Under the pieces are notes generated by a model. It searched no databases, was not told the origin of the DNA, and saw only the letters and a program-made list of their open reading frames with translations. A stretch of 32,000 nt of DNA from Bellilinea caldifistulae. GTDB lineage: Bacteria > Chloroflexota > Anaerolineae > Anaerolineales > Anaerolineaceae. Location: contig NZ_LGHJ01000012.1 in assembly GCF_001306055.1 (NCBI RefSeq), positions 30,001 to 62,000 on the forward strand, read 5' to 3'. Position 1 is the stretch's first letter. Every line of letters begins with the position of its first letter. The translations under genes were made by a program, and so were the position numbers. Positions 4,083 to 12,421 of this stretch are shown here, in pieces.

Positions 4083-4193
4083 CGCGTCCGGGTGGGACCG
4101 GCGCGGCAGAATCCGCCGAACCCTGTCAGGTCCGAGAGGAAGCAGCAGTAAGGTGGTCACTCTGGGCGCCGCCGGCAAACCTGCCCGGCGCAC
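4083..4193 (+). ncRNA. ffs: signal recognition particle RNA (small bacterial 4.5S type)
   Basis: CCCUGUCAGGUCCGAGAGGAAGCAGCAGUAAGG matches the conserved SRP domain IV (GUCAGGUCC-GNRA-GGAAGCAGC) with a GAGA tetraloop. The terminal helix is 4084-4096 (GCGUCCGGGUGGG) paired with 4180-4191 (CCUGCCCGGCGC). Confidence 0.8.
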
Positions 4194-10522: not shown

Positions 10523-10570
10523 AACAAACCAAACAAAAACCAGCGAACTTTGTGTTCATCCACTTTACTG

Positions 10571-10611
10571 AGACCGAATCGGTTCAATCGCCCTCCCGAT
10601 TCGGTCTTTTT
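10571..10611 (+). terminator. rho-independent terminator
   Basis: A perfect 12-bp stem, AGACCGAAUCGG (10571-10582) with CCGAUUCGGUCU (10596-10607), runs into a U tract ending at 10611. Confidence 0.7.
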
Positions 10612-10709
10612 GCAATTCGTCAATCCATTATTTATATTATTGATAAAAATAATAACAAATTATTTACCAAAATTCTATAAAAATTATAAGATTTTCTAAC
10701 CATTTTCCT

Positions 10710-10738
10710 ATTGATCGCTTATATCTTACCCTTTATAA
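10710..10738 (+). promoter_or_regulatory. sigma70-type promoter for the leader and surface-protein transcript
   Basis: TTGATC (10710-10715), a 17-nt spacer, then a perfect TATAAT (10733-10738). It is embedded in a ~120-bp AT-rich block (10615-10740), possibly UP-element-like. Confidence 0.6.
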
Positions 10739-10744
10739 TACGGA

Positions 10745-11002
10745 TAACAAACCAAATAACCAGGGTTCACGCCTGAAGGCGGCGATGATCTGCGCAGAGG
10801 AAACTGGTCGCTAAACCTCGTAGGGAGGAACGATGCGCAGGGAGCCAGAGCGAAACCGGCCTGATCAGGCAGTGAAGCCAGACGAATTGGAGGCGTTGAA
10901 GCGTATGTCATAATCTGGTCGCTTCTCTCGGTTATGAGAGGGGCATACGCAGAGCCAGTAGCGAAACCGGCCACACCAGTATTGGTCGGTTGTTTTAATT
11001 TT
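10745..11002 (+). promoter_or_regulatory. candidate structured cis-regulatory leader RNA (tandem riboswitch-like units plus terminator), class unassigned
   Basis: Unit A (10804-10861) and unit B (10915-10972) share CUGGUCGCU ... (A/U)GCGCAG(G)GAGCCAG(A/U)AGCGAAACCGGCC. An internal hairpin covaries: CCUC/GAGG in A and CUCUC/GAGAG in B. The unit B 3' strand overlaps the terminator 5' arm. See finding. Confidence 0.5.
10966..11002 (+). terminator. leader (attenuator-type) intrinsic terminator
   Basis: ACCGGCC (10966-10972) pairs with GGUCGGU (10984-10990) for 7 bp including one G-U. UGUUUUAAUUUU follows. It lies 37 nt upstream of the start codon. Confidence 0.5.
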
Positions 11003-11038
11003 CATCATCATAGTTCGCCTTTGGGAGGGCAACACATT

Positions 11039-12421
11039 ATGAAACACAAAACCAATTTTTATCGTTCACTTTCCAGATTGACATTCTCCATTGGAAGCAT
11101 CCTCCTGATTGTTGGATTGCTGCTGGGTATGTTCCCCCAACCGGTCAGCGCAACGGTTCCGCCGGAATGGGACAAAAGCTCATTGAAGTTTAAGTCTGGT
11201 TGCACCGGCAATTGTACAGTGGTTAAAGCCAAAATTTGCAACACCGGCAGTGGTGATATGGCAGGCTCAACTACCTACGAGGTGTACTGGGCGGCCAGCG
11301 GCAACCCGAAATCTGGAAAGATTGTCGCCACAGGCACCGTTCCGGCTTTGGAATCAGGCAAATGCACCGAACTGACTTATGATCCCAAGACCAACCCGAA
11401 CGGTTCAGCCGGGAACTATATGTTCAAAGCCTATCAGCGCCCCGGCCATCCCGGCGCTGGCGAACTTTGGAGTGATCAGTGCAGTGTTGGCCAGTGCAGC
11501 CTGCCTACAGCCACGCCCATCACCCCAACACCAACGCCGATTTCACCCCTCTCGTTATCCTACACTTGCACCGATGGCGGTCAGCTTTGGCAAGTTACCA
11601 ATCCGAATAATTTTGACCTGAATTACACCTGGAGCTCCAGTACTGGTGATAGTGGAAGCAGCACAGTCCCCGCCAATGATTCCGACAATTTCTTTATCAG
11701 CGGGGAAGACAGTATGACCGTCACGGTCACTTATGAAGGCGGCTCGGTAAGCCAGACCTCCGAAGCCTGCCCCAAACCTACCGAAGAGCCAACTGAAACT
11801 CCCACCGAAACCCCGGTGGTCAGCGAGACGCCCTCGCCCACCCCTACCGACCAGCCCACCGAAACCCCGGTGGTCACCGAGACGCCTTCGCCCACCCCTA
11901 CCGACCAGCCCACCGAAACCCCGGTGGTCACCGAGACGCCTTCGCCCACCCCCACCGACCAGCCCACCGAAACCCCGGTGGTCACCGAGACGCCCTCGCC
12001 CACCCCTACCGACCAGCCCACCGAAACCCCGGTGGTCACCGAGACGCCCTCGCCCACCCCCACCGACCAGCCCACCGAAACGGTGACGCCAACCGAGAAA
12101 CCAACCGATACCGAAACTCCGCCGACCAAGACGGTAACCCCGGTAGGCACCGATGAACCCGGAAGCCCCACTCCGGAAATCACCGAAACCGCGGTGACCA
12201 CTCCCCAACCGACCAGTTCTGGGCGTGATGAAGACCGTGACCCGCAGCCACCCGCCACGCTGGCACCGCCCTCTGGCAGTAACACCTCATTGCTGATCCC
12301 CGTCACAGGTGGTGACTTAAGCCAGCCCAAGCCCTTCGGCTCCACCAGCCTGCTGCTGATCAACTTTGGTCTGGCCTTGCTCGGCTTCGGTCTGATCCTC
12401 AACGGTCTCGGACGGCACTAA
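11039..12421 (+). CDS. secreted cell-surface protein: signal peptide, Cys-containing beta-rich (CARDB-like) domains, Thr/Pro-rich tandem repeats, LPXTG-like C-terminal sorting signal
   Basis: ATG 11039 is preceded by GGGAGGG (11023-11029). The N-terminus MKHKTNFYRSLSRLTFSIGSILLIVGLLLGMFPQPVSA is a signal peptide. The C-terminus is LIPVTGG followed by the hydrophobic LLLINFGLALLGFGLILNGLG and then RH. The track start 10934 lies inside the leader hairpin and has no SD. Confidence 0.8.
   Translation: MKHKTNFYRSLSRLTFSIGSILLIVGLLLGMFPQPVSATVPPEWDKSSLKFKSGCTGNCTVVKAKICNTGSGDMAGSTTYEVYWAASGNPKSGKIVATGTVPALESGKCTELTYDPKTNPNGSAGNYMFKAYQRPGHPGAGELWSDQCSVGQCSLPTATPITPTPTPISPLSLSYTCTDGGQLWQVTNPNNFDLNYTWSSSTGDSGSSTVPANDSDNFFISGEDSMTVTVTYEGGSVSQTSEACPKPTEEPTETPTETPVVSETPSPTPTDQPTETPVVTETPSPTPTDQPTETPVVTETPSPTPTDQPTETPVVTETPSPTPTDQPTETPVVTETPSPTPTDQPTETVTPTEKPTDTETPPTKTVTPVGTDEPGSPTPEITETAVTTPQPTSSGRDEDRDPQPPATLAPPSGSNTSLLIPVTGGDLSQPKPFGSTSLLLINFGLALLGFGLILNGLGRH
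11807..12076 (+). repeat. five tandem copies of a 54-bp coding repeat (ETPVV(S/T)ETPSPTPTDQPT)
   Basis: Copies start at 11807, 11861, 11915, 11969 and 12023. They are near identical apart from a few synonymous third-position changes (ccctcg/ccttcg, cccctacc/ccccacc) and one Ser/Thr change in copy 1. Confidence 0.95.

Follow-up and report, generated by a model that had tools for sequence, protein, structure and literature searches.

We analysed the leader of a surface-protein gene in a 32,000-nucleotide (nt) stretch of the Bellilinea caldifistulae genome (contig NZ_LGHJ01000012.1, positions 30,001 to 62,000), hereafter called the window. The region read runs from 10700 to 11045, and all coordinates are window positions on the + strand. 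It holds a sigma-70-type promoter, two adjacent homologous aptamers (A at 10766-10876 and B at 10887-10973) that are followed by one expression platform, an intrinsic terminator at 10965-11002, and the Shine-Dalgarno (SD) sequence and start codon of the gene (Table 1). The original prediction for this DNA was an unassigned riboswitch or attenuator built of two tandem units of 58 nt. The leader is indeed a riboswitch leader and a tandem one, as shown by Rfam clan matches for both units. Its class is a known one, that of the cyclic di-GMP (c-di-GMP)-II riboswitches, and what is unusual is its conserved dual-aptamer architecture.

The regulated protein has an N-terminal signal peptide, a TapA-like domain at residues 43-154 (TIGR04087, E 3.7e-18, with 65.8 bits, which is under the equivalog cut-off of 80), PT-rich tandem repeats (about five copies of the 18-residue unit PTDQPTETPVVTETPSPT) and, at the C terminus, IPVTGG ahead of a hydrophobic tail, by eye a putative sortase-type signal. 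It has no Pfam match, and its ortholog in a Bellilinea sp. metagenome-assembled genome (locus L022) gives the same TapA match. No SipW or TasA gene adjoins the regulated gene, the next gene being that of lysyl-tRNA synthetase on the opposite strand, and no GGDEF or EAL gene was found among the window open reading frames scanned. The start at 11039 with its SD GGGAGGG had been predicted correctly, as both are kept in the orthologs. A coding reading of the leader through the ATG at 10934 is rejected, given that orthologs have CGCAGG, AACACG or CUACAG at that place; since this ATG is not conserved while the ATG at 11039 and its SD are, the region is non-coding.

Table 1. Features of the leader and the regulated gene, in window positions.
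Feature	Position	Strand	Basis or detail
Sigma-70-type promoter	10711-10739	+	-35 TTGATC 10711-10716, 17-nt spacer, -10 TATAAT 10734-10739
Aptamer A, c-di-GMP-II class, 'C-subtype'	10766-10876	+	RF01786 35.0 bits, R1 68.4 bits
A P1 5' strand, UUCAC-GCCUGA-AGG	10766-10779	+	fold
A P1 3' strand, CCU-GA-UCAGGC-A-GUGAA	10860-10876	+	fold
A J1/2	C10780	+	alignment
A P2	10781-10783 with 10844-10846	+	alignment/fold
A P3	10790-10796 with 10834-10840	+	alignment/fold
A pseudoknot	10804-10812 with 10849-10853 and 10856-10859	+	leaves AA bulge 10854-10855
A inserted hairpin, CCUC-GUAGG-GAGG	10816-10828	+	fold
Linker between A and B, GCCAGACGAA	10877-10886	+	about 10 nt, poorly conserved
Aptamer B, c-di-GMP-II class, 'A-subtype'	10887-10973	+	RF03169 47.0 bits, RF01786 51.2 bits, R1 74.8 bits
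B P1, only 3 bp, UGG with CCA	10888-10890 with 10971-10973	+	alignment
B J1/2	A10891	+	alignment
B P2	10892-10894 with 10954-10956	+	alignment
B P3	10901-10908 with 10943-10950	+	alignment
B pseudoknot	10915-10923 with 10960-10964 and 10967-10970	+	leaves AA bulge 10965-10966
B inserted hairpin	10924-10941	+	fold
Intrinsic terminator, only expression platform	10965-11002	+	fold
Terminator 5' arm, AACCGGCCA	10965-10973	+	
Terminator loop	10974-10982	+	
Terminator 3' arm, UGGUCGGUU	10983-10991	+	
Terminator U-tract, GUUUUAAUUUU	10992-11002	+	
SD GGGAGGG	11023-11029	+	within small hairpin 11013-11033; kept in orthologs
Regulated gene, 460-residue secreted/surface protein	11039-12421	+	translation, profile matches

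The class of the element was assigned with Rfam cmscan, run over the whole window at gathering thresholds (40 bits for RF03169 and 53.5 bits for RF01786) and permissively (E <= 10) over 10650-11100. At gathering thresholds unit B matched RF03169 (c-di-GMP-II-GAG) at 10880-10981 with 47.0 bits over model positions 1-86. The permissive scan matched RF01786 (c-di-GMP-II) to B at 10881-10981 (51.2 bits, E 1.7e-10) and to A at 10771-10870 (35.0 bits, E 6.7e-6), in both cases over model positions 1-84. Both units thus have significant full-length covariance-model matches to clan CL00127 (RF01786 / RF03169), which removes the label 'unassigned'. Resemblances to c-di-GMP-I and ydaO that had been proposed from short stretches were not borne out, as neither family matched in the permissive scan; glnA and the other Rfam families gave no match there either, the only returns being chance snoRNA and lncRNA matches with E > 0.4. 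We also used a covariance model, R1, built from 20 unrelated Chloroflexota singleton aptamers only, with the window excluded. This model found B with 74.8 bits (E 2.6e-21) and A with 68.4 bits (E 2.5e-19), each match spanning the model from end to end, inserted hairpin included; it had no further match across the 32-kb window. Its full-length match to A indicates that A is a complete member of the subfamily and not a fragment.

The c-di-GMP-II riboswitch was reportedly described by Lee et al. in 2010, and the c-di-GMP-II-GAG variant (RF03169) is said to stem from Weinberg et al. in PNAS in 2017; 3Q3Z is a crystal structure of the c-di-GMP-II riboswitch. B lies over the cut-off of the GAG variant and has the uCGC/GCGA pseudoknot strands in common with it. 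The two Rfam consensus lines differ in that the GAG variant reads GCGAGACCG where the canonical class reads GUGCAACCG, and from this comparison 'GAG' probably denotes the bulge change. Unlike the variant, both window aptamers read GCGAAACCG at this place (10850-10858 and 10961-10969), and in the RF03169 alignment of B the match line is blank exactly at this column. Neither A nor B therefore has the G for the first bulge adenosine that marks the GAG variant, and because the canonical adenosine is kept, despite the compensated pair of the variant, the window aptamers are filed with c-di-GMP-II and not with the GAG variant proper. The retention of the canonical AA bulge in both aptamers also suggests that c-di-GMP is the ligand, and this ligand fits a regulon of extracellular matrix and surface proteins.

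The repeated strands from which the tandem was first recognised are real. CUGGUCGCU occurs as a direct repeat at 10804-10812 and 10915-10923, as does AGCGAAACCGG (AGCGA-AA-CCGG) at 10849-10859 and 10960-10970, and the combined pattern of the two strands is present twice in the window and in none of 100 shuffles. The boundaries drawn around them were wrong: the 58-nt units cover no more than the 3' two-thirds of the aptamers, whose full extents are about 10766-10876 for A (including its extended P1) and 10887-10973 for B, with the true 5' strands of the helices P1, P2 and P3 lying 30-40 nt upstream of the predicted unit boundaries. The repeated strands do pair with each other, as was proposed, but what they form is not a closing helix P1. 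In both aptamers they make the class-II pseudoknot, which joins the P3 loop to the 3' tail and leaves a two-adenosine bulge (CUGGUCGCU with AGCGA-AA-CCGG). Compared with the canonical GGGCAC / GUGC-AA-CCG, two pairs of this pseudoknot are changed on both sides (UCGC/GCGA). The internal hairpins CCUC/GAGG (10816-10828) and CUCUC/GAGAG (10924-10941) are likewise present and fold; they are a variable insertion of 18-20 nt directly 3' of the pseudoknot 5' strand and not a core helix. The stretch singled out as a conserved junction consists of the 3' strands of P3 and P2 with GGA/AGA between them, and what looked like a third partial copy, UGCGCAGAGGAAA at 10791-10803, is the 5' strand of the P3 of A, which pairs with 10834-10840 and resembles the repeat because GCGC is a palindrome.

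The unconstrained minimum-free-energy fold of A gives P1, P2, P3 and the hairpin (-47.7 kcal/mol, z -2.8), and the P1 that closes this aptamer is long, at about 14 bp. Overall the window element resembles c-di-GMP-II (RF01786) in its P1-P2-P3 layout, its P3-loop/3'-tail pseudoknot with AA bulge, its full-length model match, its ON logic and its conserved GA, UGA, GAG, AGU and ACCG blocks. It differs from that family in the two compensated pseudoknot pairs (UCGC/GCGA and not GCAC/GUGC), in the 18-20 nt hairpin insertion, in scores (51.2 and 35.0 bits) under 53.5 bits, and in its Anaerolineae host. The pseudoknot strands of A and B are identical, which makes cross-unit pairing possible.

Two side observations concern the 5' part and the insertion of A. 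Its inserted hairpin contains GGGAGG, the same sequence as in the SD at 11023-11029, together with the complement CCUC, and the stem of this hairpin is unchanged in four lineages although the P3 of A covaries; it may be a coincidence, an SD mimic or an anti-SD element. In addition, a local hairpin CGCC-UGAA-GGCG (10770-10781; -6.1 kcal/mol, not significant) would compete with P1 and P2 of A during transcription, and is retained in orthologs as CGCC-CGAA-GGCG and CGCC-UGCG-GGCG.

Relatives were collected by a pattern scan of one genome per species, which gave at least 119 loci, and about 79 among the matches listed parse as aptamers. Note that the search pattern fixed the pseudoknot core sequence in all collected members. 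Among the matches listed there are two populations, one without an insertion (mostly Actinomycetota) and one with a hairpin insertion whose position matches that in the window (nearly all from Anaerolineae or other Chloroflexota); most of the Chloroflexota copies listed are called RF03169 in Rfam and some RF01786, and the upstream aptamers of tandems are never called. In a MAFFT alignment of 29 insertion-type aptamers, 94.5% of the cells are paired, all eight P3 pairs show compensatory changes, and covariation is 0.412 versus 0.128 when shuffled, a value that none of 500 shuffles reaches. A model-guided alignment of 103 aptamers (98 distinct) has 95.6% of its cells paired versus 76.1% when shuffled, and covariation of 0.383 versus 0.098 (0/500 shuffles reach it; slid controls 0.02-0.07), with compensatory changes in 8/8 P3, 3/3 P1 and 5/5 inserted-hairpin pairs. 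Covariation had been proposed as a check on the two predicted helices. The internal hairpin is compensatory throughout; the supposed closing helix has a core that the pattern holds fixed and an outer pair that varies (UA 35, CG 16, GC 4). Independently of any alignment, 28 of the 29 inserts, unrelated in sequence, each fold to one hairpin with 4-9 bp (mean z -2.7). Taken together, the comparison indicates that the inserted hairpin in the P3 loop is a lineage-specific subtype feature of Chloroflexota/Anaerolineae.

The terminator hairpin has 9 bp and, folded directly, gives -12.6 kcal/mol (z -2.2). A simple terminator scan with a loop limit of 8 did not flag 10965-11002, which we attribute to the 9-nt loop. 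The 5' arm of this terminator, AACCGGCCA, combines three elements of B, namely the bulge and 3' strand of its pseudoknot and the 3' strand of its P1, and the corresponding strand AAACCGGCC (AAACCGG(CC)) doubles as terminator 5' arm in 23/23 Chloroflexota singleton or downstream aptamers among the matches listed. The shared strand at 10965-10973, with the same design in all of these aptamers, upholds the predicted mutual exclusion of unit B and the terminator and its ON logic. By this comparison B is well supported as a conventional transcriptional ON switch. Without ligand, AACCGGCCA would pair with UGGUCGGUU, the terminator would form and transcription would stop near 11000. With c-di-GMP bound, the same strand would be held in the pseudoknot and short P1 of B, so that the terminator could not form and the TapA-like surface-protein gene would be transcribed.

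The genes downstream of related aptamers belong to the same kind of regulon. They include a TasA/camelysin-like protein with a SipW-type signal, TapA-like orthologs and a sortase-fused DUF11/DUF7933 protein, and further targets are multicopper oxidases exported by the twin-arginine (TAT) route and a subtilase. The view that a cyclic dinucleotide controlling a surface protein would make sense here is in line with the c-di-GMP-II clan match and the TapA-like target. Several Anaerolineae loci of 8 kb carry separate aptamers before different genes, namely L078 (at 1259, 2461 and 5787), L050 (5130 and 6230), L017 (3545 and 4546) and L039 (618 and 3061), which suggests clusters of c-di-GMP-controlled surface-protein genes.

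We consider a c-di-GMP-II-type ON switch that acts on the terminator and controls the TapA-like surface protein to be the correct reading with a probability of roughly 85%. Several points weigh against this reading or parts of it. B is 2.3 bits under the RF01786 cut-off, while over that of RF03169 (47.0 versus 40), and A is under both Rfam cut-offs; the sub-cut-off RF01786 scores probably reflect the changed pseudoknot sequence together with the insertion of 18-20 nt, and related copies do exceed the cut-off (57.5 bits for the B aptamer of L089 and 54.2 bits for L001). A has C10780 for a highly conserved A between P1 and P2 and is without the U of the conserved AGU. The model-guided alignment was fitted to its model, which favours structure, while the independent MAFFT alignment agrees with it, and the pseudoknot core, being invariant through the collection pattern, could show no covariation. 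The terminator U-tract is interrupted (GUUUUAAUUUU), and sequence analysis found no feature linking A to the terminator.

We next consider the conservation of the tandem. The layout of promoter, A, short linker, B, terminator, SD and ATGAAACA start is also found in two genome loci, L022 and L089, and in metagenome contigs L120, L121, L122, L124 and L125. They share synteny with the window, with 80-86% nucleotide identity for all but L121, which is of the same species (99-100%). Both units, whose conservation in related genomes had been proposed as a check, are kept there, and the single-terminator layout is the same in four lineages. Relative to the orthologs A is 73-86% identical, B 84-89% and the linker 30-40%, and A is present at full length in all lineages (63-68 bits on R1). 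Across four distinct lineages the P3 of A reads GCGCA/UGCGC, GCAUC/GAUGC, GCACA/UGUGC and GCACC/GGUGC, and in its P1 GCCUGA/UCAGGC is replaced by GCCCGA/UCGGGC and CAC/GUG by CAUC/GAUG. Because A is kept at this level while the linker is not, and because its P1 and P3 changes are compensatory, A is under structural selection. No terminator (hairpin plus U-tract) follows the A aptamers of the window, L022 and L089, and none was found for the Actinomycetota GA-bulge aptamers L058, L066 and L075 either. In L061 and L123, two other Chloroflexota tandems, both aptamers are followed by a terminator. By this comparison both tandem architectures exist in the phylum, and the single-platform form is specific to the lineage of this gene.

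A lies about 10 nt upstream of B with a long P1 and without a terminator, an arrangement that would make the leader a dual aptamer with one expression platform. It is possible, at rather less than even odds in our judgement, that A tunes B by sharpening or shifting its response. This could occur through a tertiary contact, or by blocking mispairing of the 3' pseudoknot strand of A with the identical 5' pseudoknot strand of B. More tentatively, the leader could be a second-messenger device resembling the glycine riboswitch, in which a C-type A with a 14-bp P1 and an A-type B with a 3-bp P1 share one terminator, and in which A would act cooperatively to make a biofilm-matrix gene of Anaerolineae respond more sharply, or would gate that gene if the specificity of A differs.

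A rather doubtful alternative is that A and B are two independent, pseudo-cooperative riboswitches that act as separate checkpoints, with A using a platform other than a terminator such as ligand-dependent exposure of a Rho loading site or control of 5'-end mRNA decay. Such an architecture is reported for c-di-GMP tandems in two papers (PMC9481103, PMC12452182), L123 and L061 of the same phylum have it in their two terminators, and the 5' leader of the window (10746-10765) is C/A-rich and G-poor. Yet no lineage has a terminator after A, the linker is only about 10 nt long, is poorly conserved and contains neither a hairpin nor a U-tract (10877-10886), and the 3' strand of A is locked in its long P1 and not shared with an alternative helix. 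It is improbable that A is instead the decaying relic of a formerly complete riboswitch, without present function, that leaves all regulation to B. A does score below B on the Rfam models and lacks a platform of its own, but the full-length R1 matches in all lineages, an identity far above that of the adjacent linker and the compensatory nature of its P1 and P3 substitutions speak against a relic.

With C10780 and the missing U of AGU, the ligand or affinity of A could differ from that of B. The C-subtype, with C at J1/2, accounts for 16 of the 98 distinct aptamers; its members are all Chloroflexota aptamers, with terminator-bearing singletons among them. A mutual-information scan found no specific covariation partner of the A-to-C change, only associations of the lineage type. 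The order of C-type upstream and A-type downstream seen in the window (10780 versus 10891) recurs in the independent tandem L123:2806-3019 (-). We regard it as very improbable that A senses another ligand, for instance another cyclic dinucleotide, and forms a two-input gate with B, for while the phylum-restricted subtype, the recurring C-A order and the upper-case (highly conserved) J1/2 A in both Rfam consensus lines speak for it, C-subtype singletons control the same kind of secreted proteins with the same terminator design, A keeps the AA bulge and the remainder of the core, and the associations seen with the C, none of them a specific covariation, look like shared ancestry.

Tandem c-di-GMP-II riboswitches as such are known. 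Sherlock et al. (2022; PMC9481103) describe 59 doublets and 9 triplets, mostly before a gene for a surface anchor protein (COG4932) in Paraclostridium and its relatives, and class them as pseudo-cooperative, that is, as complete riboswitches with multiple expression platforms; their column for dual aptamers with one platform holds glycine and guanidine-II. A 2025 survey (PMC12452182) agrees: the c-di-GMP tandems enriched in it are complete units, and adjacent aptamers are typical for the glycine class. The Paraclostridium tandems of PMC9481103 and the window tandem are alike in class and in standing before a surface-protein gene, a sharper c-di-GMP response being expected for the former, and they differ in that the upstream aptamer of the window is without a platform and belongs to another phylum. 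The same source allows a comparison with the glycine riboswitch, which is alike in having tandem aptamers and one platform and differs in class and ligand; cooperativity and inter-aptamer contacts are demonstrated for glycine. The triple-tandem c-di-GMP-I element Bc3-5 of Bacillus thuringiensis (PMC4759541) also places several c-di-GMP aptamers in one 5' untranslated region, but it is class I, not homologous, and consists of three complete riboswitches. A literature search found no paper dedicated to c-di-GMP-II riboswitches in Chloroflexota, the sole co-mention being in PMC12452182.

The class, the ON logic and the theme of a tandem before a surface-protein gene are thus known already; the leader is no new riboswitch class, and standard Rfam annotation already calls B. 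The hairpin expansion of the P3 loop and the sharing of one terminator by two c-di-GMP-II aptamers appear to be unreported, published tandems not having been inspected individually. In every ortholog the upstream aptamer falls below the Rfam cut-offs, so that an automated survey would list one riboswitch and not notice the tandem. A conserved one-platform c-di-GMP-II pair offers a second system for testing the cooperativity of adjacent aptamers. It also connects TapA/TasA-like matrix proteins with the sensing of c-di-GMP in the filamentous Anaerolineae, organisms that are abundant in anaerobic digesters and granules and are genetically intractable.

In regards to the promoter, TTGATC-17-TATAAT matches 10 of 12 consensus positions. 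Its hexamers and spacer are as predicted, and only the placement (10710-10738) was one base off, the promoter lying at 10711-10739. The hexamers are kept in L022, L089, L122, L120, L124 and L125, and transcription probably starts near 10746. Behind the upstream CDP-alcohol phosphatidyltransferase gene stands a strong intrinsic terminator at 10570-10608, with a 13-bp stem (-20.4 kcal/mol, z -4.95) and UUUUU after it, and the riboswitch leader is therefore a separate transcription unit. Between this terminator and the promoter lies a 27-nt AT-rich block, AATTCTATAAAAATTATAAGATTTTCT (10671-10697), that is 100% identical in L022, L089 and L122, while flanking non-coding DNA is 59-79% identical. 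The block holds an inverted repeat, TATAA-AAA-TTATA, whose centre lies some 62 nt before the likely transcription start, and is a candidate transcription-factor site that may act together with the riboswitch. From 10759 on, the metagenome contig L121 (Ga0232067_106511) matches the window with 98.9-100% identity; before that point, where the window has its promoter, the two are unrelated. This break could reflect an assembly chimera or a strain-level promoter replacement. The PT-repeat region of L121 also differs in length from that of the window. At the other end of the leader, the hairpin at 11013-11033 (GCCUU-UGGG-AGGGC) encloses part of the SD; it is not significant (-6.9 kcal/mol, z -1.4), and its sequence is kept in orthologs with a U/C change in the loop.

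Among the Actinomycetota relatives, L076, L081, L091, L096 and L097 have a GA bulge (true GAG-type) and an insertion of 25-36 nt on the 5' side of the pseudoknot strand, which by eye seems capable of forming a hairpin. Across different phyla, then, the P3 loop accommodates insertions at two positions. Finally, a small bacterial signal recognition particle RNA lies elsewhere in the window, at 4090-4189 (+; 56.7 bits), and the same RNA is found at a syntenic distance in L089.

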